Of a stretch of DNA of 64,000 nt, positions 37,071-59,619 are shown piece after piece. The DNA is from Eubacteriales bacterium. GTDB taxonomy: Bacteria; Bacillota; Clostridia; Oscillospirales; CAG-272. The DNA lies in assembly GCA_045533435.1 (NCBI GenBank), contig JAZSHT010000104.1, positions 1,590 through 65,589 on the forward strand, given 5' to 3'. The notes under the pieces were generated by a model. That model was not told where the DNA came from, made no database searches, and saw only the letters and a program-made list of their open reading frames with translations. Each line of letters starts with the position of its first letter. The stretch's first letter is position 1. Both the position numbers and the translations under genes were made by a program.

Positions 37071-37265
37071 ATGCTTGATGTGGCAACATCGTTTAATAAC
37101 ATAAAATTAAATAGCTTTTTCTCACAAAATGCAAAATAAAGCGCTCTATTTTGCATTTTTTGCTAAAATAGATACGGTTATTTTGCACTTTTTGATATTT
37201 ATTTTGATTGTAAAGTATGGTATAATTATTACAACATAGATAATTGAGCTTTAGGGGGGCGTTAT

Positions 37266-40353: not shown

Positions 40354-40388
40354 CTGACCACCGACCACTAAACACTGACCACTAAAAA
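40354..40388 (-). repeat. heptamer array, reverse orientation of class TGGTCAG (CTGACCA CCGACCA CTAAACA CTGACCA CTAAAAA)
   Basis: Read directly. Overlaps the start of a rho-independent terminator. Confidence 0.8.
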
Positions 40389-40501: not shown

Positions 40502-41947
40502 ATGAAAATTGACGAAAGAAAATTAACCTTGCTTTGCGACTTTTACGAGCTTACTATGGCAAGAGGATATTTTCACTCTGAAATTAAGGACAAGATTGCA
40601 TACTTTGATGTGTTTTTTAGAAAAGTGCCAGACAATGGCGGTTATGCTATTTTCTGCGGTCTTGAACAAATTATTGAATATATTAAGTCTATCAAATTTG
40701 AGGATGATGATATTGAATATCTTCGTTCAAAGGGAATTTTTGACGAGGAATTTTTAGCTTACTTAAAGGACTTTAAGTTCAGAGGCGACATTTGGAGCGT
40801 TCCTTCAGGCACGGTAATTTTCCCAAATGAGCCTATTATGACTGTTCGCGGAACTGCTATGGAAGCACAATTTATTGAAACATTTATTCTTTTAGTTGTA
40901 AACCATCAAAGCTTAGTTGCAACTAAAGCATCAAGAATTGTAAGAGCCGCAAATGGCAGACCTGTATCCGAATTTGGAGCAAGACGCGCCCACGGTCCTG
41001 ATGCTGCAATTTATGGCTCACGAGCTGCATATATTGGCGGATGTGCATCTACATCATGCGCTATTTCCGATAAAATGTTTGGCGCAAAGGCAGGTGGCAC
41101 TATGGCGCACTCCTGGATTCAAATGTTTGACACAGAGTACGATGCTTTTAAAACCTACTGCACTCTCTATCCCGATAATCCAACGCTTTTAATTGATACC
41201 TACGATGTATTAAACAGCGGTCTTCCAAATGCTATTAAAGCATTCAAGGACTGTCTAAGTGAGGAGCAAAGAGAGCATTGCGCTATCCGCATTGATAGCG
41301 GCGATATTACCTATCTTACAAAAAAGATAAGAAAAATCCTTGATAATAGCGGACTTACAAAATGCAAGATTGTAGTTTCTAACTCCCTTGATGAATACAT
41401 TATAAGAGATATTCTTTTACAAGGCGCGCAGATTGATATGTTTGGCGTTGGCGAAAGACTTATTACTGCAAAGAGCGAGCCTGTTTTCGGTGGTGTATAT
41501 AAGCTATGCGCAGTTGAGGATGAAAGAGGAATTACACCAAAAATCAAAATAAGTGAAAATGCCGCAAAGATTACAAATCCCGACTTTAAAAAGGTATATC
41601 GCTTCTATTCAAAGGACACAGGCAAGGCAGAGGCAGACCTTCTTACAATTCATGATGAGGTTATTGATACATCAAAGCCTTATGAGCTTTTTGACCCAGA
41701 CCACACATGGAAGCGTAAGGTAATGGATAATTACACATTAAGAGAATTACTTGTTCCTGTATTTGTAAAAGGCGAATGTGTTTACGAAAATCCAACCATT
41801 GAAGAAATTCGCGCATACTGTCAAAGGGAGCTTGATTCCATGTGGGATGAGGTGCTTCGCTTTGAAAATCCACATAATTATTATGTTGACTTGTCTCAAA
41901 AATTGTTTGATGAGAAGCATAAATTACTTCGTCAAGGACGGAAGTAA
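40502..41947 (+). CDS. pncB: nicotinate phosphoribosyltransferase
   Basis: 481 aa with a typical NAPRTase N-terminus (LTLLCDFYELTMARGYF) and the HSWIQ motif. Confidence 0.93.
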   Translation: MKIDERKLTLLCDFYELTMARGYFHSEIKDKIAYFDVFFRKVPDNGGYAIFCGLEQIIEYIKSIKFEDDDIEYLRSKGIFDEEFLAYLKDFKFRGDIWSVPSGTVIFPNEPIMTVRGTAMEAQFIETFILLVVNHQSLVATKASRIVRAANGRPVSEFGARRAHGPDAAIYGSRAAYIGGCASTSCAISDKMFGAKAGGTMAHSWIQMFDTEYDAFKTYCTLYPDNPTLLIDTYDVLNSGLPNAIKAFKDCLSEEQREHCAIRIDSGDITYLTKKIRKILDNSGLTKCKIVVSNSLDEYIIRDILLQGAQIDMFGVGERLITAKSEPVFGGVYKLCAVEDERGITPKIKISENAAKITNPDFKKVYRFYSKDTGKAEADLLTIHDEVIDTSKPYELFDPDHTWKRKVMDNYTLRELLVPVFVKGECVYENPTIEEIRAYCQRELDSMWDEVLRFENPHNYYVDLSQKLFDEKHKLLRQGRK

Positions 41948-41949
41948 TT

Positions 41950-41983
41950 TAGTGGTCAGTGATCAGTGGTCAGTGATCAGTAG
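41950..41983 (+). repeat. heptamer array, left arm of an inverted pair (TAG TGGTCAG TGATCAG TGGTCAG TGATCAG TAG)
   Basis: Starts 2 nt after the pncB TAA. Complementary to 42073-42103. Confidence 0.92.
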
Positions 41984-42072
41984 ATTTCTTGACAATTGTA
42001 ACTAAAAAAGAATAGTAAGGATAAGCTTTTAAGCAGTACAGCTTTCGTTGTTTTTGGTCGTTTGCTAAACAT

Positions 42073-42103
42073 CTGACCACTGACCACTGACTACTGACCA
42101 CTG
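42073..42103 (-). repeat. heptamer array, right arm of an inverted pair (CTGACCA CTGACCA CTGACTA CTGACCA CTG)
   Basis: Ends 17 nt before the ymdB ATG. The reverse complement matches the left arm except at 2-3 positions. Confidence 0.92.
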
Positions 42104-42120
42104 CTTAAAGCGGATATATT

Positions 42121-42918
42121 ATGAACAACCTAAGACTTCTAGCAATCGGCGATATTGTAGGGCCGAGTGCGGTAGAATATATAAGAAAAAATTTATGGGC
42201 AATAAGAAAAAAGTACAAGATTGATGGTGTTATTGCCAACGGCGAAAATGCGTCTGAGCCAAACGGTATTGACAGGCAAACTGCCGAAACGCTTTTTGAA
42301 AGCGGTGTTGATGCAATCACAACAGGAAATCATGTATTTAGAAAAACTACGGTTTTTAAATATCTTGATGATGAGGATAGAATTTTACGCCCTCTCAATT
42401 TTGTTTCATCTTGTCCCGGACATGGAGATGCAATAATAAATATAAACGGCTATAAAATGCTACTTTTAAATGCTTTAGGTCAGGTTTATTCCGATAATCC
42501 ACCTAACTGCCCCTTTGAAGCCATAGAAAAAGCACTCAAAAGAAACGAGGGCGACTATGATTTTGCGGTTTTAGATTTTCATGCAGAGGCAACGGGAGAA
42601 AAGAAAGCAATCGCTTACAATTTTGCCGACAAAATAGGCGTAATATTCGGCACTCACACTCATATTCAAACTAATGACGCAAGAATACTTGAGGGTAAAT
42701 GCGCATATGTTACCGACATTGGTATGTGTGGCGCATATGATAGCATTTTAGGTGTTAAAAAGGAAGCTATTATATTTAAGTTAAAAAATAAAATGCTTTC
42801 AAAATTTGATTTTGCAGAAGGCGAGATTGAATTTAACGGAGCAATTTTTGAAATAGACACAGACACAGGAAAAGGCATTTCCTGTGAATTAGTAAACATT
42901 AAAGGAGATATAAAATGA
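42121..42918 (+). CDS. ymdB: YmdB-family metallophosphoesterase (2',3'-cyclic-nucleotide phosphodiesterase-like)
   Basis: 265 aa with motifs LAIGDIVG, ANGENA, TTGNH, GTHTHIQTND. Confidence 0.9.
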   Translation: MNNLRLLAIGDIVGPSAVEYIRKNLWAIRKKYKIDGVIANGENASEPNGIDRQTAETLFESGVDAITTGNHVFRKTTVFKYLDDEDRILRPLNFVSSCPGHGDAIININGYKMLLLNALGQVYSDNPPNCPFEAIEKALKRNEGDYDFAVLDFHAEATGEKKAIAYNFADKIGVIFGTHTHIQTNDARILEGKCAYVTDIGMCGAYDSILGVKKEAIIFKLKNKMLSKFDFAEGEIEFNGAIFEIDTDTGKGISCELVNIKGDIK

Positions 42919-44195
42919 AAACAACTGAGCTTTTAAATTATGTAAAAAACGGAGAATTAAACGCTAAGCTTAACGATATTTACGGCGAGGAAAATGTTGA
43001 AAGCCAAAAAGCAAGATACGAGGAAGCAATTAACGACTTTTTAAATATTTACGGAGATAGAGAGGTTTCAATTTTCTCAGTTCCAGGCAGAAGCGAAATT
43101 TCAGGTAACCATACCGACCATAACCACGGTAAGGTGCTTGCAGGCTCAATTAACCTTGATATTATTGCTATTGCATCAAAGACAGATGATGGTGTAATTA
43201 GAATTAAGTCAAAGGGTTTTGATGAGGATAAAATCGACACAAATACATATACAGAGCCAAATGAAAAGGACTTTTTCAAATCAGGCGCTTTAATTGCAGG
43301 TATGGCAAAAGCATTTACAAATGCAGGCTACAACAAGGGCGGTTATATCGCCTATACAACATCAAATGTATTTAAGGGCTCAGGACTTTCTTCCTCTGCG
43401 GCATTTGAGGTTATGGTTGGTAATATCCTTAACTATTTCTATAATGACGGCAAGGTTGACAATGTAGAAATTGCAAAAATGGCGCAATTTTCAGAGAATG
43501 TATTCTTTGGTAAGCCTTGCGGACTTATGGACCAAATGGCTTGCGCAGTTGGTGGCTTTGTTTATATTGACTTTGAGGACACAAAAAATCCTAAGATTGA
43601 AAAAATTGACTTTAACCTAAGTGGTGCAGGCTATGCGCTTTGTATTGTAAATACAGGTGGCAACCACGCAGACTTAAACGATGATTATGCTTCAGTTCCA
43701 AGTGAAATGAAAGCAGTTGCAAAGGAGCTTGGCTGCGAATATTTAAGACAAACCTGTCTTGGCGAGGTTATGGCAAATATAAAGGAGCTTCGCGAAAAGG
43801 TTGGCGACCGTGCAATTTTAAGAGCATATCACTTCTTTAACGAAAACGATAGAGTATCAGCCCAAGCAAGCTACTTAAAGGAAAATGATGTTGAAAGCTT
43901 CCTTGAATTTGTATTAAAGTCAGGAAATTCAAGCTTTAAATTCTTACAAAATGTATATACAACAAAGAATGTAAGTGAGCAGGGGCTTTCCCTTGCGCTT
44001 GCAATTACTGAAAATATCCTTTGTGATACAGGCGCAGCTTGGCGTGTTCACGGTGGTGGCTTTGCAGGTACAATTCAAGCATTCGTACCTTTTGCACAGG
44101 TTTCCGCTTATAAGGAAGAAATTGATGCAGCACTTGGCGAGGGCGCTTGTCATATTTTAAGAATCCGTCCTTACGGCGCAATTCAAGTAATGTAA
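42915..44195 (+). CDS. galactokinase-family GHMP kinase
   Basis: 426 aa with GRSEISGNHTDHNHG (galactokinase signature-like) and GHMP motif GSGLSSSAA. Overlaps the ymdB stop by 4 nt. Confidence 0.8.
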   Translation: MKTTELLNYVKNGELNAKLNDIYGEENVESQKARYEEAINDFLNIYGDREVSIFSVPGRSEISGNHTDHNHGKVLAGSINLDIIAIASKTDDGVIRIKSKGFDEDKIDTNTYTEPNEKDFFKSGALIAGMAKAFTNAGYNKGGYIAYTTSNVFKGSGLSSSAAFEVMVGNILNYFYNDGKVDNVEIAKMAQFSENVFFGKPCGLMDQMACAVGGFVYIDFEDTKNPKIEKIDFNLSGAGYALCIVNTGGNHADLNDDYASVPSEMKAVAKELGCEYLRQTCLGEVMANIKELREKVGDRAILRAYHFFNENDRVSAQASYLKENDVESFLEFVLKSGNSSFKFLQNVYTTKNVSEQGLSLALAITENILCDTGAAWRVHGGGFAGTIQAFVPFAQVSAYKEEIDAALGEGACHILRIRPYGAIQVM

Positions 44196-44203
44196 TATTA
44201 TTA

Positions 44204-44376
44204 GTTATGAATCCGCTATGCGAATGTTATGAACTTGCTACGCAAGCGTTATGAATTTTGCGAAACAAAATGTTATGATATGATTGCCAAACGCCGTCAG
44301 GCTCATAACACGCGTAGCGTTCATAACGACGAAGTCTCATAACTTGTCCTGAGGCTTCGCGGAAGGCAATCATAAC
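44204..44376. repeat. zipper element: 4 x GTTATGA then 4 x TCATAAC, each separated by 8-26 nt
   Basis: GTTATGA at 44204, 44226, 44248, 44272. TCATAAC at 44303, 44321, 44337, 44370. Spacers contain mini-hairpins (CTTGC-TAC-GCAAG). Confidence 0.85.
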
Positions 44377-44377
44377 T

Positions 44378-44410
44378 GTTCTCCTTTCGGAGAACGAAAG
44401 GAGAACTATG
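44378..44410 (+). promoter_or_regulatory. alternative hairpins involving the Shine-Dalgarno sequence of the MBL gene
   Basis: GTTCTCCTTTC (44378-44388) is exactly complementary to GAAAGGAGAAC (44396-44406, the RBS). Its first 7 nt also pair with GGAGAAC (44389-44395). Confidence 0.5.
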
Positions 44411-45181
44411 ATTACTGCATACACACTTTTCTCAGGCTCAGGTGGGAACTGTACATATGTAACAGATGGAAAAGCAAAAATACTTATTGATGCCGGAAAG
44501 AGCTGTCTTGCCATTGAAAAAGCTCTTAATGCTCTTGGCGCATCACTTTCAAGCATCAACGATATTTTTGTAACTCACGAGCATAGCGACCACACCGTAG
44601 GGCTTGAGGTAATTTCTAAAAAATATAATATTCCTGTGCATTTTGCTTACCCTTCATACGATAAGGCAATTCAAAACACCACATATTTAAAGCGTAGTGC
44701 TATTCGCCACGAGGTGCTTTTTGAGAAAAAGGTGGGGGATGTGTTAATAAAATCCTTTGAGGTGCCACACGATAGTATGCAAAATCTTGGCTACATAATA
44801 AGTGATGGCGAGGACACCTTCGGCACTGCTACCGATATGGGACATGTTACCGAAAGCCTTGCAAATGAGCTTATAAAATGTAGATGTGTTTTAATTGAAG
44901 CAAACCACGATAAAAAGATGCTTAAGGAAGGAAAGTATCCACAGTTTTTAAAGGATAGAATTTTGTCCCCACACGGACATTTATCAAATGAAAACTGCGC
45001 CCGCCTTGCTTGCTATCTTGCAGATAACGGAGTTAAATGCATCACTCTTGGGCATTTAAGCAAGGAAAATAATTTACCAAAAATTGCACTTGACACAGTA
45101 AATAACTTACTTGAAGCAAATAATTTATCCGTCGATTTATCTGTCGCTTCATCTGAAGAAGCGGTATTGCTTACAAGGTAA
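44408..45181 (+). CDS. MBL-fold metallo-hydrolase (YycJ/WalJ-like)
   Basis: 257 aa with HEHSDH motif. The RBS is embedded in alternative hairpins. Confidence 0.85.
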   Translation: MITAYTLFSGSGGNCTYVTDGKAKILIDAGKSCLAIEKALNALGASLSSINDIFVTHEHSDHTVGLEVISKKYNIPVHFAYPSYDKAIQNTTYLKRSAIRHEVLFEKKVGDVLIKSFEVPHDSMQNLGYIISDGEDTFGTATDMGHVTESLANELIKCRCVLIEANHDKKMLKEGKYPQFLKDRILSPHGHLSNENCARLACYLADNGVKCITLGHLSKENNLPKIALDTVNNLLEANNLSVDLSVASSEEAVLLTR

Positions 45182-45187
45182 GCAATA

Positions 45188-45218
45188 TAGTGGTCAGTGG
45201 CTAGTGGTCAGTGGTCAG
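45188..45218 (+). repeat. heptamer array, left arm (TAG TGGTCAG TGGCTAG TGGTCAG TGGTCAG)
   Basis: Starts 6 nt after the TAA of the MBL gene. Complementary to 45330-45356. Confidence 0.92.
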
Positions 45219-45329
45219 TAAGCTTGCTATACGACTTTTACAACTAACCGCTAATTATGTACCGCTTATTAAAATGACGTTTAACGCTTATCTTTGTTTT
45301 TGTTCGTGTTCTTTGGTCTATCCGCTTGT

Positions 45330-45356
45330 CACTGACCACTGACCACTGATCACTAC
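45330..45356 (-). repeat. heptamer array, right arm (CA CTGACCA CTGACCA CTGATCA CTAC)
   Basis: Followed by AAAA and then CGACTGAAAGGAG (45361-45373) and the rsmG ATG. Confidence 0.92.
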
Positions 45357-45378
45357 AAAACGACTGAAAGGAGTTTTT

Positions 45379-46098
45379 ATGTTCACAGAAAAACTAATAA
45401 GCGTAGCAAACAGAAACGATGCTACTAAAAACTTAATAAATGAGGAAAATGCACGCAGGCTTGAAGCATTATCAAGCCATATGCTTGAGGTAAATAAAAC
45501 ATTAAATCTTACCGCTATTAAGGATGAGGATGGTGTTATTTTAAAGCACTTAGTTGACTCATCTGCGGTTGTGAATTTCATTCCCGAAAACGCAAGTCTT
45601 TGCGATATTGGCTGTGGTGGTGGCTTTCCATCACTTGTAATTGCAATTTTACGCCCTGATGTGTCTGTATTTTCAGTTGATAGCGTATCAAAAAAGGTTG
45701 CTTATGTTGAAAGCGCTGCACAAAAATTCGGTCTTAAAAACGAAAAAACCTCAAACGAAAGAGCCGAGGCTTTAGGACAAGGCAATAAGCGCGAGAGCTT
45801 TGATGTTGTTACTGCAAGAGCCGTTGGCAGACTTAATCTTATAAGTGAGCTTTGTATTCCGCTAGTTTCGGTAGGTGGCGTATTCCTTGCAATGAAATCC
45901 CTCTCAACTGATGAGGAATTAGAGGAAGCACAAAAAGCCATAGCTTTACTGGGTGGTAAGGTGGAAAATGTGTTTACCTACACGCTTACCGATGACAACG
46001 AGGAAATTGAGCGCTCAATCGTAGTTATACGAAAAATAAAAAACACTCCGCCTAAGTATCCACGAAATAATTCGCAGATTGCAAAGAAGCCGCTTTGA
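45379..46098 (+). CDS. rsmG: 16S rRNA (guanine527-N7)-methyltransferase
   Basis: 239 aa with SAM motif DIGCGGGFPS, typical of RsmG/GidB. Confidence 0.93.
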   Translation: MFTEKLISVANRNDATKNLINEENARRLEALSSHMLEVNKTLNLTAIKDEDGVILKHLVDSSAVVNFIPENASLCDIGCGGGFPSLVIAILRPDVSVFSVDSVSKKVAYVESAAQKFGLKNEKTSNERAEALGQGNKRESFDVVTARAVGRLNLISELCIPLVSVGGVFLAMKSLSTDEELEEAQKAIALLGGKVENVFTYTLTDDNEEIERSIVVIRKIKNTPPKYPRNNSQIAKKPL

Positions 46099-47697: not shown

Positions 47698-47735
47698 CTG
47701 CTGACGGCTGACAGCTAACGGCTGGTGGCTGTTCA
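47698..47735 (-). repeat. heptamer array, reverse orientation of class TAGCCGT (CTG CTGACGG CTGACAG CTAACGG CTGGTGG CTGTTCA)
   Basis: Read directly. Lies in the 5' UTR, ending 26 nt before the citrate synthase ATG. Confidence 0.85.
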
Positions 47736-47761: not shown

Positions 47762-49135
47762 ATGGCAAGAGTAAAGAAAGAATTAACACAATTAACTCCA
47801 CAGCTTATGGGTTATGTAGAAAAATGCTCAATCAATACAACTATTGAAGCAGAGCTTTTTGACAAATATAATGTAAAAAGAGGACTTAGAGAAAAGGACG
47901 GTAAGGGTGTAGTTGTAGGTCTTACTGAAATTTCCGAGGTACAGGGCTTTAAGTATGTTGATGGCGTAAGAACTCCTTGCGAGGGCGAGCTTTTCTACCG
48001 TGGTATCAATATTTATGACCTTGTTGATGGATTTTTAAATGATGGCAGACACGGCTACGAGGAAACTATTTACCTTCTTCTTTTCGGTGTTCTTCCAAAT
48101 AAAGAGGAGCTTGATGATTTTATAAAGCTACTTTCAAAATATCGTTCACTTCCAAAGAATTTCGTTCGTGATATTCTTATGAAGGCATCAGGCAAGGACA
48201 TGATGAACTCACTTGCACGAAGCGTGCTTACTCTTTATGCTTATGATGACAAGGCAGATGATACATCAATTCCTAATGTGCTTCGCCAAAGCTTACAGTT
48301 AATTTCAGAGTTTCCACTTTTAGCGGTTTATGCATATCATGCATATGAATTCTATGAAAAGAAAAATAGCTTAGTTATTCGCCCACCAAAGGCGGGACTT
48401 TCAACTGCGGAAAACTTCCTTTATATGCTAAGAAAGGATGGAAAATATACTCCACTTGAAGCAAGAATTCTTGATGTTGCGTTAGTTTTACACGCAGAGC
48501 ACGGTGGCGGTAACAACTCCACCTTTACAACTCATGTTGTTTCATCATCCGGTACAGACACATACTCAACAATTGCCGCATCCCTTGGCTCACTTAAGGG
48601 TCCAAGACACGGTGGCGCTAACATTAAGGTTGTTGAAATGATTGAAGACATTAAGAAAAATGTTAAGGATTGGACAGATGAAAACCAAATTTCCGATTAC
48701 CTAAACAAAATCTTAAATAAAGAAGCATTTGATGGCAAGGGACTTATTTACGGTATGGGACATGCCATTTACTCTAAATCCGACCCAAGAGCTTGTATTT
48801 TAAGAAGATTTGTTGAAAAGCTTTCAAAGGAAAAGGGCAAGGATAAGGACTATAAGCTTTGTCAGTTAATTGAAAGACTTGCACCCAAAATCATCGCAGA
48901 GCATAAAGCAATTTTCAAGGGCGTAAGCGCAAATATTGACTTTTATAGTGGATTTATCTATGATATGCTTGATATTCCTCACGAGCTATATACACCACTC
49001 TTTGCAATTTCTCGTATTGCAGGCTGGAGCGCACACCGCCTTGAGGAAATCTTAATGAACGGTAAAATCATCCGTCCTGCTTATCAGGAAATCATCCCAA
49101 GAGGCACTTATGTTCCTATGGAAGAAAGAAAATAG
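47762..49135 (+). CDS. citrate synthase
   Basis: 457 aa with motifs HAEHGGGNNSTF, GPRHGGAN, GMGHAIY. The TAG stop is followed directly by a TGGTCAG array. Confidence 0.93.
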   Translation: MARVKKELTQLTPQLMGYVEKCSINTTIEAELFDKYNVKRGLREKDGKGVVVGLTEISEVQGFKYVDGVRTPCEGELFYRGINIYDLVDGFLNDGRHGYEETIYLLLFGVLPNKEELDDFIKLLSKYRSLPKNFVRDILMKASGKDMMNSLARSVLTLYAYDDKADDTSIPNVLRQSLQLISEFPLLAVYAYHAYEFYEKKNSLVIRPPKAGLSTAENFLYMLRKDGKYTPLEARILDVALVLHAEHGGGNNSTFTTHVVSSSGTDTYSTIAASLGSLKGPRHGGANIKVVEMIEDIKKNVKDWTDENQISDYLNKILNKEAFDGKGLIYGMGHAIYSKSDPRACILRRFVEKLSKEKGKDKDYKLCQLIERLAPKIIAEHKAIFKGVSANIDFYSGFIYDMLDIPHELYTPLFAISRIAGWSAHRLEEILMNGKIIRPAYQEIIPRGTYVPMEERK

Positions 49136-49163
49136 TGGTCAGTGGCTAGTGATCAGTAGTTAG
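49133..49163 (+). repeat. heptamer array (TAG TGGTCAG TGGCTAG TGATCAG TAG TTAG)
   Basis: The first TAG is the citrate synthase stop. Followed by TTAGCTTTTGCACAACATTACA, which is homologous to the sequence next to the array at 52941-52974. Confidence 0.92.
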
Positions 49164-49191
49164 CTTTTGCACAACATTACACATACTAAAA

Positions 49192-49221
49192 AACGCATAC
49201 ATCTTTTCGGTGTATGCGTTT
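49192..49221 (+). repeat. 30-bp direct repeat copy 1 (terminator hairpin AACGCATACATCTTTTCGGTGTATGCGTTT)
   Basis: Identical 30-mer at 52070-52099. The two copies bracket the R-M cassette. Confidence 0.95.
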
Positions 49222-49344
49222 ATTTTTAGTAAAATGAAAATAATTATTAGAATAGCTCACGATTTTTTAAAATTGCATTTTGGATCTTGATTTTGTTCGA
49301 TAAATAGAATATAATAGACTTATAAAATATAAGGAGACAATTTT

Positions 49345-50415
49345 ATGCTTCAATATATGTCTTGCCGAGATGCTGCCGAAAGATGGAATATATCACAACG
49401 CAGAGTTTCTGTTTTATGCGCTGAAAATCGCATACCCAATGTTGCTATGCTCGGCAATATGTGGATAATTCCCATAAATGCCGAAAAGCCAACGGATGCA
49501 CGAAAAAATAACGGTGCAAAGCCAACTAATGAAAAAGCTCATCCTTTTATAAAATGGGCAGGTGGTAAAACTCAGCTTTTAGATGTACTTAAAAGTAATT
49601 TACCAAGTGGTATTGGTACTACTATTAGAAAATATGCAGAGCCTTTTGTTGGTGGCGGTGCATTCCTTTTCTCTATACTCGAGGAATACAACTTTGAGGA
49701 AATTTACATTAGCGATAACAATAAAGAGCTTATGAATGTTTATGTCGCCATTAGGGATAACTGTAACCAGCTTTTAAATGCTCTCAACACCTTGCAAAAC
49801 GAATATAATGGACTTAGTGCCGAATTGCAAGAGAAATTTTATTATGAAAAGCGCGAGGAATTTAATACAGTTGAATTGACCGATAAAACAAGTGTTCAAA
49901 AGGCTTCATTGTTTATTTTCTTAAATAAATCTTGTTTTAATGGTTTATTTAGGGTTAACAAAAAGGGCAAATATAATGTTCCTTTTGGAAAACACAAGTC
50001 TGTTTCAATTTGCGATAGCGATAATTTAACTAAAATTTCTGCTATGCTACAAAATGTTATAATAAAGGCTTGCGATTATCAAGAGGTTATGAGCTTTGCT
50101 GATAGCTCAACTCTTGTATATTTTGACCCACCATATAGACCCTTGAATGTAACATCAGGCTTTACCTCATATACCGAGGATGATTTTTCTGATAAAAATC
50201 AAATAGATTTAGCAAATTGCTTCAAGGCTCTTTCAAAAAAAGGCGTTAAAGTAATGCTTAGCAACTCAGACCCAAAAAACACAAACGAAAATGACAATTT
50301 CTTTGACGATTTGTATGCAGATTTTAACATTTTGCGTGTTGAAGCCTCTCGTATGATAAACAGTAAAGGCTCATCAAGAGGAAAAATCAAAGAGCTTTTA
50401 ATTAAGAATTATTAA
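49345..50415 (+). CDS. Dam-type N6-adenine DNA methyltransferase (GATC-type) with N-terminal HTH domain
   Basis: 356 aa. The first ~50 aa are HTH-like (CRDAAERWNISQRRVSVLCAENRIPN), followed by the Dam pattern KWAGGK...EPFVGGGA...YFDPPY. Confidence 0.9.
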   Translation: MLQYMSCRDAAERWNISQRRVSVLCAENRIPNVAMLGNMWIIPINAEKPTDARKNNGAKPTNEKAHPFIKWAGGKTQLLDVLKSNLPSGIGTTIRKYAEPFVGGGAFLFSILEEYNFEEIYISDNNKELMNVYVAIRDNCNQLLNALNTLQNEYNGLSAELQEKFYYEKREEFNTVELTDKTSVQKASLFIFLNKSCFNGLFRVNKKGKYNVPFGKHKSVSICDSDNLTKISAMLQNVIIKACDYQEVMSFADSSTLVYFDPPYRPLNVTSGFTSYTEDDFSDKNQIDLANCFKALSKKGVKVMLSNSDPKNTNENDNFFDDLYADFNILRVEASRMINSKGSSRGKIKELLIKNY

Positions 50416-50424
50416 GGAGTAGAT

Positions 50425-51303
50425 ATGAAAAGAAATTTTAACGAATGGCTTGCTAATTTCAGAGAAAGCATAGCTGACTACAAGTATTATATTGATTTTG
50501 ACAAAGTACATAGAAATGTTGATAGCATAAAGATTGAGTTGAATATATTAAATACACTTGTAGGCTCTAAAAACATTGAAGCTGACTTTATAAACTTAGT
50601 AAAGAAATATCCTGAAACATTAAAGGTTATTCCTATTCTACTTGCAAAGAGAGAAAGTGAAATATATTGCCAAGATCAAAATTTAGCACGAACATTTGAA
50701 TTTTCCAAAAATATTCCCATAGATGCAGATGAGAAATTTTTCAAAGAGTATTGCTATTTTATGAGAGAAACAGGGCTTTTTGATCTATTACAAAATCGCA
50801 TTATAAGCAACTTGGTTGATTATGTAACAGGCGTTGAAACAGGCTTGGATTCAAACGGCAGAAAAAACCGTGGCGGTCATTTAATGGAAAATTTAGTTGA
50901 AAGCTATATTCAACAGGCTGGATTTATAAAAAATGAAACTTATTTTAAAGAAATGAACCTTTCAGATATAGAACATCTTTGGGGAATTGACTTATCTGCA
51001 ATTTCAAACACAGGTAAAACGGAAAAACGATTTGATTTTGTAGTGAAAACCAACAACAAAATTTATGGAATAGAAGCAAACTTTTATTCAAGTGGCGGCT
51101 CTAAGCTAAATGAAACAGCAAGAAGCTATAAAAATATAGCTATTGAGTCAAAAGAAATAGATGGGTTTGAATTTGTATGGTTTACCGACGGAAACGGTTG
51201 GAAATCTGCAAGACACAATTTAGAAGAAACCTTTGATGTAATGGAACACATTTATTCTATTGCCGACTTAGAAAACGGCATAGCAAACGAATTATTTAAC
51301 TGA
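50425..51303 (+). CDS. DpnII/MboI-family type II restriction endonuclease (GATC)
   Basis: 292 aa, collinear with my recollection of DpnII: ...LNILNTLVGSKNIE..., NLVDYVTGVETGLDSNGRKNRGG, KRFDFVVK, NFYSSGGSKLNETARSYK. Confidence 0.88.
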   Translation: MKRNFNEWLANFRESIADYKYYIDFDKVHRNVDSIKIELNILNTLVGSKNIEADFINLVKKYPETLKVIPILLAKRESEIYCQDQNLARTFEFSKNIPIDADEKFFKEYCYFMRETGLFDLLQNRIISNLVDYVTGVETGLDSNGRKNRGGHLMENLVESYIQQAGFIKNETYFKEMNLSDIEHLWGIDLSAISNTGKTEKRFDFVVKTNNKIYGIEANFYSSGGSKLNETARSYKNIAIESKEIDGFEFVWFTDGNGWKSARHNLEETFDVMEHIYSIADLENGIANELFN

Positions 51304-51304
51304 T

Positions 51305-52042
51305 ATGGCAAAGAAAATACCTTTACAACCAGAAAATTTTGAGCTTGAAACAAATACTGTTTGGAGCTTTCCAAATAGGGGAAAATGGGCAACTCACGAT
51401 GCCAAATACCGCGGAAATTGGTCGCCTTATATCCCAAGAAATATAATTTTAAGATATTCAAACGAGGGTGATACAGTTCTTGATCAATTTGTTGGCGGTG
51501 GTACAACTATGGTTGAAGCCAAGCTGACAGGCAGAAATGCAATAGGAGTTGATATTAACCCAAATGCAGTTGAATTGTCTTTGAAAAAATGTAATTTTGA
51601 ATACGAATCAAGTTCACAAATTAAAATAATGCAAGGTGATGCAAGATATCTTAATTTAGAGAACGAAAGCATTGATCTTATTTGCACTCATCCACCCTAT
51701 GCTGATATTATCAAGTATAGCGAAGATATTAAAGGCGATTTGTCGCACCTTAAAATAAAAGATTTTTTAACAGAGATCTACAAGGTAGCGCAGGAAAGCT
51801 ATCGAGTTTTGAAAAAAGGCAAGTTTTGTGCTATTTTAATGGGAGATACCCGCAAAAACGGCATGGTTCAACCTCTCGCTTTTGAAACAATGCGTCTTTT
51901 TGAACTTGTTGGATTTAAGACAAAAGAAATTATAATAAAAGAACAACATAATTGTAAAGCAACGGGTTTTTGGAAAACTAATAGCATAAAACACAATTTT
52001 TTGTTACTTGCCCACGAATATTTATTTGTATTCAAAAAATAA
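51305..52042 (+). CDS. second SAM-dependent DNA methyltransferase of the R-M cassette
   Basis: 245 aa with motif I FVGGGTT and motif IV THPPY. Its start is 1 nt after the endonuclease stop codon. Confidence 0.82.
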   Translation: MAKKIPLQPENFELETNTVWSFPNRGKWATHDAKYRGNWSPYIPRNIILRYSNEGDTVLDQFVGGGTTMVEAKLTGRNAIGVDINPNAVELSLKKCNFEYESSSQIKIMQGDARYLNLENESIDLICTHPPYADIIKYSEDIKGDLSHLKIKDFLTEIYKVAQESYRVLKKGKFCAILMGDTRKNGMVQPLAFETMRLFELVGFKTKEIIIKEQHNCKATGFWKTNSIKHNFLLLAHEYLFVFKK

Positions 52043-52572: not shown

Positions 52573-52881
52573 GTGTTTGATGAACAACTGTTTTATAAAA
52601 GACTAACAGAATTAAGAGTGGCGAAGGATGTTTCTGCAAGAGACATGAGCTTGTCGCTTGGTCAAAGCGAAAACTATATAAACGCTATTGAAAATAAGCG
52701 TGCATTCCCATCTATGCAAGTATTTTTCTATATCTGCGATTATTTTGGTATTTCCCCAATGGAATTCTTTGATTTTGACAACACCAATCCTACTAAGTTA
52801 CAGGAAATTATCAAAAAATTAAAGTCTCTTAACAATGACCAATTAAAGCTTATTGAAACTATGATTGACAACATGAAATAA
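52573..52881 (+). CDS. XRE-family helix-turn-helix transcriptional regulator
   Basis: 102 aa with a GTG start and RBS AAGGTGG. HTH_3 pattern (VSARDMSLSLGQSENYINAIENKR). Confidence 0.8.
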   Translation: MFDEQLFYKRLTELRVAKDVSARDMSLSLGQSENYINAIENKRAFPSMQVFFYICDYFGISPMEFFDFDNTNPTKLQEIIKKLKSLNNDQLKLIETMIDNMK

Positions 52882-52885
52882 AATA

Positions 52886-52911
52886 ACGCATACGGATTTC
52901 CGTATGCGTTT
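52886..52911. terminator. terminator related in sequence to the 30-bp direct repeats
   Basis: AACGCATACGG-ATTT-CCGTATGCGTT. Same ACGCATAC/GTATGCGT stem ends as 49192 and 52070. Confidence 0.8.
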
Positions 52912-52940
52912 TATTATTTGTAAGCTTGTGCAAAATCTAA

Positions 52941-52974
52941 CTGCTGACCGCTGACCACTGATCACTGACCACTA
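52941..52974 (-). repeat. heptamer array (reverse complement: TAG TGGTCAG TGATCAG TGGTCAG CGGTCAG CAG)
   Basis: This TAG is the stop of the minus-strand gene 52972-53847. Inverted counterpart of the array at 49133-49163. Confidence 0.92.
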
Positions 52975-53847
52975 AATATTTATTGTTTGATTTGCGTAAA
53001 TATCCACACATGTGTCGCTATTTTCAAGGATTAAGGACACAGGGGTGTCAAAAATTTCAGTTGGCAAGTCGGTTTTGAGTGTAACCTGTGTGCCGTTTTC
53101 GGTGTTTTCAACTACTAACTCGGAGTTATCACGAAGGTAAATATATTTTACCATATCGTTATATGAGCAGAGCCAAATGTTATTTTTGTTTGCTTGCTCA
53201 GCAAGGTACATACATTCAGGCAAGAATGTTTCGTACTTTTGGGCGTGGTGGGTATCCTGCTCCTTTTTAGAAAGCCAATGGTTCATTTGAACTGTCCAAC
53301 CGCCCTCGCTTATTGTCTTATCAATATTATCAATATATGGCTGTAAATCGTAAACAAAGCGAGTTGTAAATGTGCCAACATCATATAAATTCATGTTATA
53401 TGTGTCGTTAATTCTGTCATTTCCGTTTCGGTTTGAATAGTAATATTCCTTTAAAATGTTCCAACCCTCCTGTGTGCTACCGCCACCGGGAGTTACATAT
53501 GCAATTACAGGTGTGCCGTAAATTTCCTCAAGTTTTTCCTTAGTTTCCTTAGCATCCTTATGTAATTTTTCGGGGTCGGTTTCGCCATTATAGCATAAGC
53601 AATGGTCAATACTGTGTCCGCAAATATCAAAATAGCCCTCGTTAATAAGGTCCTTCCACATTTTAATTATCCATTCGTGCAAGAAGCCAACAGTTTGAGC
53701 AGAGGTAATTTTGATTTTTTGTCCTGTCTTTTCGTAAACCTCTTTTAAATTTTCGTATGCATCAAGAGTTGACTCGCGATAGCATCCATCATCAAATACA
53801 AAGCTGTATGCACTTTTTGCGTTGTTATAGTAAGTTGCAATTTTCAT
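52972..53847 (-). CDS. polysaccharide deacetylase-like protein
   Basis: 291 aa with FVFDDG and GHSIDH motifs. The TAG stop is followed, in gene orientation, by a TGGTCAG array. The 5' UTR carries the CCCTAT array plus CGACTGAAAGGAG. Confidence 0.7.
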   Translation of the reverse strand: MKIATYYNNAKSAYSFVFDDGCYRESTLDAYENLKEVYEKTGQKIKITSAQTVGFLHEWIIKMWKDLINEGYFDICGHSIDHCLCYNGETDPEKLHKDAKETKEKLEEIYGTPVIAYVTPGGGSTQEGWNILKEYYYSNRNGNDRINDTYNMNLYDVGTFTTRFVYDLQPYIDNIDKTISEGGWTVQMNHWLSKKEQDTHHAQKYETFLPECMYLAEQANKNNIWLCSYNDMVKYIYLRDNSELVVENTENGTQVTLKTDLPTEIFDTPVSLILENSDTCVDIYANQTINI

Positions 53848-53874
53848 AATTGTTTTACTCCTTTCAGTCGTAAA

Positions 53875-53910
53875 CAGGGAATAGGGTATAGGGAATAGGA
53901 GATAGGGAAA
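53875..53910 (+). repeat. heptamer array, class TAGGGTA (CAGGGAA TAGGGTA TAGGGAA TAGGAGA TAGGGAA)
   Basis: Lies in the 5' UTR of the minus-strand gene and reads CCCTAT-type in that mRNA. Adjacent to CGACTGAAAGGAG (reverse complement of 53858-53870). Confidence 0.9.
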
Positions 53911-53980: not shown

Positions 53981-54170
53981 AATAGATAAAAAAGTTGTAT
54001 TATGCTTTGGGAATAATTTTTTAACTAGCAGATGAACACTGACCAGTAATATGCAATCTTCGGTTGATTCCATACAATCCTTGACTGATTGCATATGACC
54101 TTCGGTCAATTCCATACAATGCTTTGCGTTGATTACATACACATCTGCGATGTGATTGCGACTTTGTCGC

Positions 54171-54204
54171 ATCCCTATCCCCTATCCCCTATATCCTATC
54201 CCCC
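54171..54204 (-). repeat. heptamer array, CCCTATC-type (ATCCCTA TCCCCTA TCCCCTA TATCCTA TCCCCC)
   Basis: Lies in the 5' UTR of the transporter gene. Followed by AAAG and then CGACTGAAAGGAG (54209-54221). Confidence 0.9.
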
Positions 54205-54226
54205 AAAGCGACTGAAAGGAGCGAAA

Positions 54227-55491: not shown

Positions 55492-57318
55492 ATGATTAGA
55501 GACGACTTAAGAAATGTAGCAATTATTGCTCACGTTGACCACGGCAAAACAACTCTTGTTGACGGTATGCTTCAGCAAGGTGGCGCATATCACGAAAACC
55601 AAGCAACTACTGACAGAGTAATGGACTCTAACGCTCTTGAAAAGGAAAGAGGAATTACTATCCTTGCAAAAAATACTGCTATTCACTATGGCGACAAAAA
55701 AATCAATGTAATTGACACCCCAGGCCACGCTGACTTTGGCGGCGAGGTTGAAAGAATTCTTAAAATGGTTAACGGTGTTATCCTTCTTGTTGATGCAGCA
55801 GAGGGACCAATGCCACAAACAAGATTCGTTCTTCGCAAGGCTATGGAATTAAATCACAGAATTATCGTTGTTGTTAATAAGATTGACCGTCCTGATGCTC
55901 GTGTAACTGAGGTTATTGATGAGGTTTTAGAGCTTCTTATTGACTTAAATGCAACTGATGAGCAGCTTGACTCTCCAATGCTTTTCTGCTCAGGTAGAGC
56001 AGGCACAGCGTCATTCTCTCCTGATGTAGAGGGCGAAAACTTAATTCCACTTCTTGATACAATCGTAAATTACATTCCAGCTCCAGAGGGAGAAGAGGAT
56101 GAAAGCCTTCAATTACTCGTTTCATCTATTGACTATAACGAGTATGTTGGTAAAATCGGTGTAGGTAGAATTGAAAGAGGCTCACTTAAGGTAAACCAAG
56201 AGGTTACAGTATGTAACTTCCACTCAGATGAAGCTCCAAGAAGAGCAAAAATCGTTTCAATTTATCAATTTGATGGTCTTTCCCGTACACAGGTACAAAG
56301 TGCAACAGTTGGCGATATCGTATGCTTCTCAGGTGTTGAAGAGCTTTCAATCGGCGATACACTTTGCTCTGCTGGTAATGTTGAGCCACTTGAATTTGTA
56401 AAGGTTTCAGAGCCTACTCTTGAAATGACATTTGCAGTTAACGATAGCCCATTTGCAGGCAAAGAAGGTAAATTCGTAACATCCCGCCAAATTAGAGACC
56501 GCCTTTACAAGGAAACACTTAAGGATGTATCTCTCCGTGTAAGCGATGGCGACACTACCGACTCATTTAGAGTTGCAGGTAGAGGCGAAATGCACTTATC
56601 AATCCTTATTGAAACAATGCGCCGTGAGGGCTTTGAGCTTTGCTGCTCAACTCCAAGAGTGCTTTATAAAACAATTGATGGCATTTTACATGAGCCAATG
56701 GAAAGAGTTTCTATTGATGTACCGGCAGAGAGCGCAGGCGCAGTTATTCAAAAGCTTAGCGCAAGAAAGGGCGAGCTTTTAGAAATGGACCCAACAGGCT
56801 CAAGAACTAAGCTTGAATATATTATTCCATCAAGATGCTTACTTGGTTACAGAAACGAGTTTATGACAGATACAAAGGGCGAGGGCATTTTAAATACACT
56901 CTTTGATGGCTATCAACCATTCAAGGGAGAGGTTGTAACAAGATTTACAGGCTCACTTATCGCATCCGAAACAGGCGAAGCAACATCATACGGTCTATTT
57001 AAGACACAAGACAGAGGCGCTATGTTTATCGGCGTTCAAACTCCTGTTTATGAGGGAATGATTGTTGGCGAATGTCCAAAGATGGAGGATATCGTTCTTA
57101 ATGTTTGCCAAAAGAAGCACTTAACTGCTATTCGTTCAAAGGGCGCAGATGAGGCTTTAATTCTCGTTCCACCAAAGCAATTATCCCTTGAGCAAGCTAT
57201 TGAGTATATTGCGGATGATGAGCTTATTGAGGTAACACCTAAGTCAATTAGATTAAGAAAGAAAATTCTTGATACTGCATTAAGACTTAAGGCGCAAGCG
57301 AAATTAAAAAAGCAGTGA
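55492..57318 (+). CDS. typA: translational GTPase TypA/BipA
   Basis: The ATG at 55492 has RBS AAAGGAG ([24 protein letters not shown]). The TGA stop lies inside the first TGATCAG unit of an array. Confidence 0.95.
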
Positions 57319-57350
57319 TCAGTGGTCAGTGGTCAGTGTTCAGCAGCTAG
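57313..57350 (+). repeat. heptamer array (CAG TGATCAG TGGTCAG TGGTCAG TGTTCAG CAG CTAG)
   Basis: The typA TGA stop (57316-57318) is part of the first unit. Confidence 0.9.
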
Positions 57351-57506: not shown

Positions 57507-58754
57507 ATGTTTTCAGAAAAGATATTAAATATAGCATCTGAGGCGGAAAGGGAGCTTGCTCCGATTTTTGCTAAGATTGATGAAATTTCATTTAAAAATA
57601 CACAAAGAGTGCTTGAAAGCTTTAAGGAATTTAAGGTTGCCGAGAGTATGTTTGCAGGCACAACTGGTTATGGCTACGATGATATTGGCAGAGACACACT
57701 TGATAAAATTTATGCCGATGTTTTCGGAGCAGAAAGTGCATTTGTAAGACACTCAATAGCCAACGGCACAAGCGCACTTACAATCGGATTGTTTGGACTT
57801 TTAAGACCAAATGATGTGCTTTTATCAGTTACAAATCAACCATATGATACTCTTTGCGAGGTAATCGGCATTAACGGTGCAAACGGAGATGGCTCACTTG
57901 CGGATTTTGGTGTAAAATACGATCAGGTTGACTTTAAAAACGAGGAAATTGACTTTGAGGGAATTGAGAAAAAGCTCAATGAATATGGAGATAGCGTTAA
58001 GGTTGTTTTCATTCAACGCTCAAAGGGATATTTAAATAGACCGACACTTACAATAGACCAAATTGGCGAAATTTGCGATTTTGTTCACAAAAGAAGCAAA
58101 TCGTATGTGGTTGTTGACAACTGCTATGGCGAATTTTGCGAGGATAGAGAGCCTTGCCATGTGGGAGCAGATATGATAATCGGCTCACTTATTAAAAATC
58201 CAGGTGGCGGAATTGCCGAAAGCGGTGGATATATTGCAGGCACAAAAAGAGCAGTTGAGTTAGCTTCCTACCGTTTAACCTCTGCCGGCACAGGATGCGA
58301 GGTAGGTGCATCTTTAGGTCAAAACAGAAATATGTTCAAGGGATTTTTCTTAGCACCTCACATTGTGGCTCAGGCTATTAAAACTGCACATTTTGCCGCA
58401 TATGTGTTTGAAAAATTAGGCTTTGATGTATCTCCAAGGTATAACGAAATGCGCTCGGATATTATCCAAACAATTAAGTTTGGATACGCTGATGGTCTTA
58501 TTAAATTCTGCCAAGGAATTCAAAGCGCATCCCCTGTTGACTCTTATGTAACTCCTGTGCCATGGGCAATGCCAGGCTATCAGGATGAGGTAATTATGGC
58601 AGCAGGCGCATTTACTCAAGGCTCATCAATAGAAATTTCAGCAGACGGTCCTATTCGCATACCATATACCGCATTTTTACAAGGCGGTCTAACCTTTGAA
58701 AGCGGAAAAATCGCAATATTAACAGCAGCTTCGCTGCTAGGGGATAGGATATAG
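57507..58754 (+). CDS. YnbB / aluminium-resistance family PLP-dependent (Met gamma-lyase-like) protein
   Basis: 415 aa with the typical FAGTTGYGYDDIGRDTLD N-terminal region. The last 4-5 codons and the TAG stop are encoded by the TAGGGGA/TAGGATA array. Confidence 0.85.
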   Translation: MFSEKILNIASEAERELAPIFAKIDEISFKNTQRVLESFKEFKVAESMFAGTTGYGYDDIGRDTLDKIYADVFGAESAFVRHSIANGTSALTIGLFGLLRPNDVLLSVTNQPYDTLCEVIGINGANGDGSLADFGVKYDQVDFKNEEIDFEGIEKKLNEYGDSVKVVFIQRSKGYLNRPTLTIDQIGEICDFVHKRSKSYVVVDNCYGEFCEDREPCHVGADMIIGSLIKNPGGGIAESGGYIAGTKRAVELASYRLTSAGTGCEVGASLGQNRNMFKGFFLAPHIVAQAIKTAHFAAYVFEKLGFDVSPRYNEMRSDIIQTIKFGYADGLIKFCQGIQSASPVDSYVTPVPWAMPGYQDEVIMAAGAFTQGSSIEISADGPIRIPYTAFLQGGLTFESGKIAILTAASLLGDRI

Positions 58755-58772
58755 GATATAGGGGATAGGGAT
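58738..58772 (+). repeat. heptamer array (TAGGGGA TAGGATA TAGGATA TAGGGGA TAGGGAT)
   Basis: Spans the end of the ynbB-like CDS (stop TAG at 58752-58754) and the entire 18-nt spacer up to the rlmH ATG at 58773. Confidence 0.92.
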
Positions 58773-59353: not shown

Positions 59354-59381
59354 CTGTAAGCTGGCGGCTGGCGGCTATAAC
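59354..59381 (-). repeat. heptamer array, reverse-type (CTGTAAG CTGGCGG CTGGCGG CTATAAC)
   Basis: Partially complementary to 59256-59287, separated by a 66-nt AT-rich loop. Confidence 0.8.
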
Positions 59382-59619
59382 AAAAAGCTTCGGCAAAACC
59401 AGAAGCTCAGAGGGTGAGGGAAAATTCGTGAACGCGTACACGTCGGCGTACTGGTGTACGACAGAGTAGCGGTCGCGAATAGAAAAGCAAAAATGGAATT
59501 TCTCCCAAAGGGAAAATTCCTTCCTTGAATAGCTTCTTTATCGTATTGAAAAACAGGCAGCAATATATATTTTGCTTTTCGGTTTCACCAGCCTGTGAGT
59601 TTCTCATTGGAGGATTTAT

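Follow-up and report, generated by a model that had tools for sequence, protein, structure and literature searches.

Inverted heptanucleotide arrays between an MBL-fold hydrolase gene and rsmG in an uncultured gut clostridium

Intergenic arrays of tandem heptanucleotides have been noted in bacteria since about 1990, and to our knowledge none of the four published heptamer systems has an established function. For the cyanobacterial STRR arrays, Mazel and co-workers reportedly described the units CCCCAGT, TTGGTCA and CAACAGT in 1990. Here, an element of this kind, named el45, is described in a 64,000-nt stretch of an Eubacteriales genome of the CAG-272 lineage (contig JAZSHT010000104.1, positions 1,590 to 65,589; 36% G+C), which is called the window hereafter and belongs to an uncultured clostridial lineage of animal guts. 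el45 is an insert of 197 bases between two housekeeping genes, encoding a metallo-beta-lactamase-fold (MBL) hydrolase and RsmG, and is built from four copies of a 7-base unit, a filler of about 110 bases and mirror-image repeats of the unit. Head-to-tail 7-nt units, dispersed intergenic arrays, convergent inverted pairs and variation among close relatives were all found, leaving the potential to form G-quadruplexes as the only structural feature that is absent; el45 therefore belongs to an already described, functionally unexplained class of paired intergenic heptanucleotide arrays. Our comparisons show it to be a lineage-specific repeat of this dispersed intergenic class with the inverted arms (CAGTGRT)n ... 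(AYCACTG)n. That such arrays are a genome-wide and cross-phylum phenomenon which is already in the literature had been missed by the first-pass annotation of the window. No paper naming a TGGTCAG-type unit was found in the literature.

The best documented arrays are those of Xanthomonas, where 183-186 GGGAATC arrays per genome, mostly of about 4 units, are 89-93% intergenic and lie on average 28 nt from the end of the upstream open reading frame (ORF) and 160 nt from the downstream ORF; 70-75 arrays per genome form convergent inverted pairs with stem-loop capability, and closely related species differ in how long the arrays are and in their sequence (Rehm et al., 2015, PMC4692102). The window resembles this system in its tandem intergenic heptamers and convergent pairs, and its AGGGAAT/CCCTATC arrays are one base off GGGAATC. 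In contrast, the CAGTGRT unit of el45 lacks G-tracts: no run of three G occurs in the TGGTCAG and TGGCTAG units, so that a G-quadruplex mechanism is not applicable. The host differs as well (a low-GC gut Firmicute), arrays in the window often supply the stop codon, and the right arm of el45 ends at a Shine-Dalgarno (SD) sequence. Geobacter metallireducens harbors eight pairs of 'class 3 global regulator binding sites' with five MTYCTGA heptamers each, which lie on opposite strands at variable distance (one pair between proB and proA) and are absent from the sister species (Aklujkar et al., 2009, PMC2700814). The NNNCTGA core is the one seen in CTGACCA of el45, and the intercistronic inverted pair is common to both, whereas the Geobacter arrays were read as putative IHF/HU sites with no relation to stop codons or ribosome-binding sites (RBS) described and are found in another phylum with another unit variant. 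TAACTGA direct repeats, present in 2-6 copies and 169 sets per genome, are known from Beggiatoaceae, some cyanobacteria and Bacteroidetes, a patchy cross-phylum spread, and are mostly 'forward' and just upstream of start codons (MacGregor, 2015, PMC4679880). Their CTGA core has the orientation of CTGACCA before rsmG, but TAACTGA is almost never inverted (one indirect repeat) and overlaps or replaces the RBS in genomes that make weak use of the SD, whereas a strong SD follows the el45 array. The STRR heptamers, as far as they are cited in PMC4692102, rarely occur as pairs in Nostoc; they share with el45 the dispersed intergenic tandem arrangement and a CAGT/ACTG core, while cyanobacterial arrays are often long and belong to another host lineage. 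Proposals for the role or origin of heptamer arrays comprise G-quadruplexes, IHF/HU sites, S1/Csp/CsrA sites and polymerase slippage (PMC4692102, PMC2700814, PMC4679880).

el45 fills the whole intercistronic spacer in the conserved gene run NAPRTase-ymdB-galK-MBL-rsmG and is bounded by the stop codon of MBL on one side and the ancestral SD sequence of rsmG on the other (Table 1). The MBL stop codon TAA occupies 45179-45181, and an in-frame second TAG (45188-45190), seven bases past it, begins the left array with its units TGGTCAG (45191-97), TGGCTAG (45198-204), TGGTCAG (45205-11) and TGGTCAG (45212-18). The units of the right arm are CTGACCA (45332-38), CTGACCA (45339-45), CTGATCA (45346-52) and a terminal CTAC (45353-56). 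Repeat searches returned period-7 arrays at 45189-45219 (4.4 copies) and 45330-45354 (3.6 copies), and an inverted-repeat search returned the arms as a 26-nt repeat, 88% complementary, 116 nt apart. The 13-mer CGACTGAAAGGAG lies at 45361-45373, directly 3' of the AAAA that follows the right arm. The anatomy given by the first-pass annotation, with a left arm at 45188-45218, a right arm at 45330-45356, a loop of about 111 nt and the succession of AAAA, 13-mer and ATG, was confirmed by the sequence.

The MBL-rsmG spacer was read in 22 relatives, from genomes as well as metagenome contigs, and el45 was present in none of them (0/22). At least eight other states were found among these relatives (their loci are designated L), ranging from gene overlap up to 147 nt. 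The genes overlap in L004, are 4 nt apart (AAGGTGATTTTATG) in L146-148 and L152-155, and about 15 nt apart in L001 and L015; L145 has 56 nt with a small hairpin, L144 has 147 nt in which CTTCATT units alternating with hairpins come after an AGCCGTT array, and L149-151 have 131 or 147 nt with an AATTCAT...ATGAATT element. A purine-rich AGAGAAC/AGGGGAC array is found in L002 and a CAGCAGT array in L003. Relative to spacers free of el45, the locus represents a replacement and no clean insertion. L149 and L150 on the one side and L151 on the other encode identical RsmG (P0011) and differ by one 16-nt 'unit + hairpin' (AATGCCGTGGGCAATT) in this spacer, which shows gain or loss at the level of single units on a short time scale. 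The nearest species representative to the window has an RsmG that is 97% identical, at about 94% nucleotide identity, and an identical RsmG protein was not matched on record.

The sequence AAAGGAGTTTTTATGTTyACwGAAAA, comprising SD, start codon and the MFTEKL N-terminus, is common to the window, L144, L145 and L149-151. Since relatives without el45 have this SD and start codon as well, the RBS of rsmG is ancestral, and since it is ancestral, rsmG does not need the arrays. el45 was placed upstream of this pre-existing RBS. The 'conserved RBS module' proposed in the first-pass annotation thus stands for the SD and start codon, while of this module only the upstream CGACTGA is new and resembles one more degenerate NNACTGA unit. 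The idea that el45 brought a new start codon was rejected, as the MFTEKL N-terminus is common in el45-free relatives. A dependence of rsmG expression on the upstream array, which had been raised there as a point to check, is unlikely in view of the spacers of 4 nt (L146-148, L152-155) and about 15 nt (L001, L015).

The architecture of el45 is the same as that of el41, an element at 41.9 kb in the NAPRTase-ymdB spacer with a left array at 41948-41981, a loop at 41982-42072 and a right array at 42073-42103, as had been noticed before. The two loops have two short blocks in common, TTACAACTAA and GCTTATCTTTGTTTTTGTTCGT. Their local alignment score of 27 (dinucleotide shuffles: 16.0 +/- 2.7) was reached by 12/2000 shuffles and their global score of 31 (shuffles: 15.7 +/- 4.6) by 14/2000, and none of 1022 real intergenic 91-nt windows, taken from this genome and 15 relatives, reached the local score (maximum 26). 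The similarity is therefore weak and T-rich, yet above chance, and the control by shuffling that had been set for it is passed. With either loop as query, blastn-short found no homologue in 1 Mb of loci from related and unrelated sources, and even the two loops did not match each other at E<10, so that their relation is one of alignment statistics only. On these statistics el45 is shown to be a distant paralogue of el41. The earlier suggestion of a duplicated or mobile element is thereby divided: a copied element fits the absence from 22 relatives and the loop kinship, while a classical mobile element does not fit the lack of a target-site duplication on inspection and of any other loop homologue in 1 Mb.

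el41 is older than el45 and more informative. Its orthologue in L146, whose RsmG is 88% identical, has 143/173 identical positions (82.7%) over arms and loop, compared with 56-68% identity at third codon positions of the five genes flanking el41. A mirrored double change has occurred in L146, where GGCTAG is the outermost (first) left unit and CTAGCC the outermost (last) right unit. The units in the NAPRT-ymdB spacer are AGTGGTC/GACCACT in the window and L146, GCTAAATT/AATTTAGC in L001, L003 and L144, ACTATGA/TCATAAC in L015 and AATTCAT/ATGAATT in L002, in relatives often interleaved with small GC hairpins. This spacer retains array, centre and complementary array while the units get replaced, and the notion of a selected spacer design stands in this loose sense only. 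The 13-mer CGACTGAAAGGAG occurs exactly three times in the window, at 45361-45373 (+), 53858-53870 (-) and 54209-54221 (+), each time between an array and an ATG, and twice in L015; some copies are at non-orthologous sites, each following an array. It reads best as a degenerate NNACTGA unit joined to a generic strong SD.

el45 and el41 are part of a larger set. TGGTCAGTGGTCAG, with up to 2 mismatches, had 26 matches in the window against 0.12 expected, and about 20 heptamer arrays were found in the 64 kb, all at or between gene ends. They fall into the three families AGTGGTC/AGTGATC, TTAGCCG/AGCCGTT/AGCGGTT and AGGGTAT/AGGGAAT/AGGAGAT. In all three, arrays 3' of stop codons read YAG-N4 on the sense strand, and arrays 5' of start codons are the complement (CTGACCA, CCCTATC, GCTGACG) with CTR on the start-codon side. 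This rule is also true for the minus-strand gene 52972-53847, and the first YAG is often the stop codon itself (8838, 49133, 5605, 35243 and 58752; TGA at 57316). The only placement exception in the window is the CTG-type array between a stop codon and a terminator, which in L001 is the right partner of a larger element. The orientation rule is mathematically equal to a chirality of the hairpin, with a 5' arm of CAG type on either strand, and is therefore no proof by itself of a role at the RNA level.

Within otherwise conserved arrays, unit variants differ among the window, L001 and L015, and at 53.8/54.2 kb and 57.3 kb the array family swaps between close relatives while the flanks are conserved. 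Between arrays of AGGGAAT (53876-53909) and CCCTATC (54173-54203) lies a divergent promoter region with conserved counterparts in relatives; the same region is bracketed by AGCCGTC/GCTAACG in L001 (15600-15830) and by AGCCGTC/CTGACCA in L015 (13860-14060). The typA/bipA array is kept in L015, and an AGCCGTC array takes its place in L001. The array behind the citrate synthase gene precedes an intrinsic-terminator-like hairpin. When seven post-array sequences were aligned with MAFFT, no shared inner module was seen after CAG-type arrays except a degenerate last unit.

Table 1. Positions and supporting evidence of the genes, arrays and elements in the window.
Feature	Position	Strand	Description and evidence
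MBL gene	44408-45181	+	metallo-beta-lactamase-fold hydrolase; ORF list; Pfam Lactamase_B_2 1.4e-16
el45 left (5') arm	45188-45219	+	CAG-type, TAG + four heptamers + T; sequence, repeat searches, paired in the minimum free energy (MFE) structure of the RNA
el45 loop	45219/45220-45329	+	110-111 nt, G-poor and T-rich; sequence, fold, alignment
el45 right (3') arm	45330-45356	+	CTG-type, CA CTGACCA CTGACCA CTGATCA CTAC; sequence, repeat searches, fold
Module before rsmG	45357-45373	+	AAAA + CGACTGA (degenerate NNACTGA unit) + AAGGAG (SD); sequence
rsmG	45379-46098	+	16S rRNA m7G527 methyltransferase; Pfam GidB 7e-42, homologues
el41	41948-42103	+	NAPRTase-ymdB spacer; sequence, alignment, fold
Solo array	8838-8881	+	TAG(TGGTCAG)6; first TAG is the tgt stop codon
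CTG-type array	40354-40386	+	CTGACCACCGACCACTAAACACTGACCACT; between stop codon and terminator
Solo array	49133-49160	+	TAG TGGTCAG TGGCTAG TGATCAG TAG; first TAG is the citrate synthase stop codon
D12-class adenine methylase	49345-50415
DpnII endonuclease	50425-51303
Second N6/N4 methylase	51305-52042
Solo TGGTCAG-family array	52943-52973	-	CAG-type on the minus strand, directly past the stop of the polysaccharide deacetylase gene (minus strand)
Solo array	57313-57343	+	CAGTGATCAGTGGTCAGTGGTCAGTGTTCAG; includes the typA/bipA stop TGA (57316-57318)

To analyze the distribution outside the clade, metagenome contigs were scanned with the pattern TCAGTGRTCAGTGRTCAG-N88-118-CTGAYCACTGAYCA, which finds both el45 and el41 in the window. 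At least 120 metagenome stretches contained this gapped inverted array, and judged from dataset names the contigs come putatively mostly from soil, peat and sludge. Among the matches listed, the contigs have a median G+C of 0.60 (range 0.41-0.70) and the arrays a median of 5 units, with CAGTGGT and CAGTGAT as dominant units; in 40 examples the loops look unrelated to one another by inspection. As the metagenome loci had been fetched with a chirality-specific pattern, chirality was determined from two mirrored scans of viral contigs, in which the order CAG-type...CTG-type was found in 7 contigs and the mirrored order in none. A co-directional subset of 32 metagenomic elements lies between confidently called co-directional genes, and in 21/32 of these the upstream stop codon is -3 to +5 nt from the start of the array.

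As RNA, the arms of el45 form one long stem of about 27 bp (MFE -57.3 kcal/mol, z -4.19, equalled by 0/200 shuffles), and the SD of rsmG lies outside this stem in the MFE structure. el41 shows the same long-stem behaviour (z -5.8). The loop of el45 by itself is less structured than its shuffles (z +1.7; worse than 199/200). No promoter or terminator above background was detected in 41800-45500 and no terminator in el45; the sole promoter-like match in the el45 region lies on the minus strand and agrees at 9/12 positions, and such counts are at the shuffle level. A scan of the whole window at the gathering thresholds of Rfam gave one tRNA and nothing else, and at E<=1 no match was obtained in 41850-45500. 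No credible small ORF is present in the loop of el45, which contains only GTG-start frames without RBS.

Several known types of element were compared with el45. REP/BIME elements, which are imperfect palindromes of 20-40 nt with a conserved 5' GTAG and an associated RAYT, do not agree with tandem arrays 110 nt apart, as neither a compact palindrome nor a GTAG-headed hairpin was seen; an integron attC site does not agree with units off the RYYYAAC/GTTRRRY core and with flanks that are syntenic housekeeping genes in all relatives. HutP recognises a (UAG-N4)x3 motif, and the left arm of el45 has NAG triplets (TAG/CAG) every 7 nt; this is a resemblance only, with no terminator in el45. Pairing of the arrays with the 3' tail of 16S rRNA was rejected as a general explanation, since the TTAGCCG and AGGGTAT families show no unusual pairing. 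The AGTGATC/AGTGGTC arrays (e.g. 41951-41981) do pair unusually well with a generic 16S tail, at GAUCAC upstream of the anti-SD, with -9.4 kcal/mol, a score reached by 0/400 and by 7% of permuted units (as the window has no rRNA gene, an assumed tail sequence was used). This complementarity is probably a coincidence.

The explanation we prefer, tentatively and at slightly less than an even chance, is that el45 is a dispensable co-transcribed intercistronic RNA hairpin which is maintained by slippage and arm-to-arm copying. As el45 has neither promoter nor terminator, it would be transcribed as part of the MBL-rsmG message. In the mRNA the arms would zip into the stem and loop out the filler of 110 nt, so that no more than about 40 nt of the folded chain may separate the MBL stop codon from the SD, with the SD left free. 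The stem may be cut or bound by double-strand-specific RNases of the RNase III type, or it may block exonucleases, and the predicted effect is a modest shift in the processing or stability of the two cistrons rather than a switch that rsmG needs. Units would be won and lost through replication slippage, the complementarity of the arms would be kept by selection for pairing and/or by intramolecular template switching, and whole elements or halves may be exchanged between spacers and lineages via recombination. The nearest tested analogue for such a way of working is the Correia element of Neisseria, whose co-transcribed inverted ends are bound or cut by RNase III with altered expression of neighbouring genes (PMC2649163). 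Correia/NEMIS elements resemble el45 in working mode by a length of 100-150 bp, inverted ends of about 26 bp, a position beside genes and co-transcription. Unlike the arms of el45, Correia ends are not tandem arrays, and the conserved core, IHF site, TA target duplication and promoter creation of Correia elements have no counterpart in el45, which is thus no member of the Correia family.

A number of points weigh against this explanation. Co-transcription, the stem in vivo, cleavage by RNase, the modest effect and the route of maintenance are all steps that we infer. The arms deviate from Watson-Crick pairing at 3/26 positions, and the variant unit GGCTAG has no mirrored counterpart in the other arm. 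In the co-directional metagenomic elements, sense RNA folds better than antisense in 21 cases and worse in 10, with a mean difference of -3.6 kcal/mol that is marginal (Wilcoxon p 0.056) and with 10.3% G-U pairs in sense versus 7.8% in antisense RNA; this bias is a trend and no proof for selection on the transcript. Within the clade, co-directional spacers hold too few stable tetraloops (UUCG/GNRA) for the two strands to be told apart by them, and the recurrent CCTTCGG motifs are triloop palindromes that are alike on both strands. The higher conservation of el41 could come from recent recombination instead of constraint, and template switching alone could keep the complementarity without selection. 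A plain hairpin also leaves unexplained the strict chirality of the arms, the many solo arrays without partner and the frequent identity of the first YAG with the stop codon. No model accounts for chirality, stop-codon locking or the switching of array families at conserved sites.

The strongest competitor, which we nevertheless hold to be rather unlikely, sees in el45 a functionless by-product: heptamer simple sequence repeats (SSRs) grown by slippage, with quasi-palindrome template switching between the arms, tolerated as junk. Slippage has been proposed as the reason why no other long SSR class is as abundant as the heptamers (Mrazek, 2007, cited by PMC4679880 and PMC4692102). The imperfect arms and unstructured loop of el45 agree with a by-product, as do its absence from the closest relatives with spacers of 4-15 nt, the at least nine different states of the spacer and the unit-level indels between strains. 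Mere tolerance is harder to reconcile with the conservation of el41, loop included, far above synonymous sites (83% vs 56-68%), with a chirality of 7:0, with array positions that are tied to stop codons and SD sites and with the recurrence of the same heptamer in unrelated phyla; arrays also cluster near 4-5 units without length drift, as in Xanthomonas (PMC4692102). Several of these features would be expected if the arrays were sites for a factor that reads a 7-nt register, either a HutP-like ring-shaped RNA-binding protein on the CAG-type arm that competes with pairing, or a DNA-looping nucleoid protein. In all three families YAG recurs every 7 nt on the stop side and CTR on the start side, solo arrays exist, the clustering at 4-5 units fits, and chirality is expected from a sequence-specific reader; global regulators have been proposed for the arrays of Geobacter (IHF/HU) and Beggiatoa (S1/Csp/CsrA) (PMC2700814, PMC4679880). 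We consider such a factor doubtful, as no candidate protein was identified in the 64 kb of genome, array-bearing phyla share few specialised RNA-binding proteins, and the unit family changes at one orthologous site between close relatives, which a specific reader should resist. Slightly more speculative still is a broader form of this idea, a cross-phylum cis-code of locked chirality in which the arrays would mark the limits of cistrons in mRNA. CAG/TAG-type arrays starting at the stop codon and CTG-type arrays ending at the RBS would pair in cis, as in el45, or in trans between the 3' and 5' untranslated regions of separate messages, or they would be read by a 7-nt-register factor that sets translational coupling or mRNA fate throughout the genome.

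Mobility of el45 as a miniature inverted-repeat transposable element (MITE) with heptamer-array termini, mobilised by a transposase encoded elsewhere, is improbable. It could account for the terminal inverted repeats of about 26 nt (88% complementary), a length of about 170-200 bp, presence and absence among relatives, el41 as a second copy with a related interior and sibling elements at non-orthologous loci, and fixed ends would make the chirality intrinsic. Yet inspection of the flanks (GCAATA/TAGTGG...CACTAC/AAAACG) revealed no direct repeat and hence no target-site duplication at either end, and no transposase was found near el45 or el41 among 20 ORFs scanned. A conserved interior is shared, weakly, with el41 only, in just two short blocks, with no other loop homologue in 1 Mb; the metagenomic loops (40 examples) look unrelated, solo arrays are many, and the arrays at 53.8-54.2 kb change family around the conserved divergent promoter region. 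Least probable by far is a dedicated regulatory leader of rsmG, be it a promoter, an attenuator or a terminator-antiterminator, despite the position of el45 directly upstream of the rsmG SD and the T-rich block in its loop: promoter and terminator signals do not exceed background, the SD is outside the stem, relatives express rsmG from spacers of 4-15 nt, and the same architecture stands before the unrelated gene ymdB.

Further repeats were observed in the window. The galK-MBL spacer (44196-44407) holds GTTATGA units interleaved with small hairpins and facing TCATAAC units (RNA z -7.6), and this element matches elements of L015 at two non-orthologous loci with 73-82% identity, so that such elements are dispersed. 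At its 3' end is a 12-bp hairpin, GUUCUCCUUUCG...CGAAAGGAGAAC, in which the SD of MBL is paired with an anti-SD. The CitMHS transporter has a 5' leader (54040-54170) with small hairpins, several of them CCTTCGG-type palindromes, split by a ATTCCATACAAT-like unit. At 58744-58772 an ATAGGAT/ATAGGGG array runs across the stop codon of a methionine gamma-lyase-family gene and takes up the 18 nt that separate this gene from the ATG of the next one, a SPOUT methyltransferase gene; the locus has an AGCCGCC array in L001 and almost nothing in L015. The long leader of mnmG/gidA (59376-59625) gave no Rfam match at the gathering threshold in the whole-window scan, and its core of 40-65 nt recurs inverted in repeats upstream of rsmG in the distant L012-L014 and in L011. 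This core is another dispersed intergenic repeat. Tandem duplications of 31-32 nt (TATTTTGCAC/GTTTTTGC-like) lie at 37133-37194 and 62210-62268, in opposite orientation and 5' of promoter-like TATAAT boxes; a single regulator possibly uses them as paired operators.

L001 lacks the segment 49231-52070, whose genes (Table 1) form a DpnII-type GATC restriction-modification system. Homologous 'array + terminator' modules lie on both sides of this segment, at 49133-49232 and, on the opposite strand, at 52880-52975, and TGATCAG array units each hold one GATC site. The GCTGACG-type array before the citrate synthase gene (47700-47735) includes GCTGGTGG, which we take to be the E. coli Chi octamer, and the AGCGG-type arrays hold what is presumably the B. 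subtilis Chi pentamer.

The value of el45 lies in its contrast with relatives and in the regularities of its class and not in a new kind of system. The locus adds a new host lineage, uncultured gut Clostridia, and a clean comparison with el45-free relatives inside a conserved cluster of housekeeping genes. Inverted arrays of this very CAGTGRT unit are also common among unrelated high-GC bacteria of soil and peat. Any explanation has to cover three regularities: the fixed chirality of the arms, arrays that begin at the stop codon or provide it, and a complementarity that outlasts the replacement of units. In genome annotation, such spacers should not be mistaken for promoters, riboswitches or CRISPR-like arrays. 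If the arrays are junk, they would be a striking case of mutationally driven structure. If they act in mRNA processing or translational coupling, they would represent a widespread unrecognised layer of operon organisation, and if the cis-code holds, el45 would be a natural gain-of-element allele that makes the function of STRR-like heptamers directly testable.

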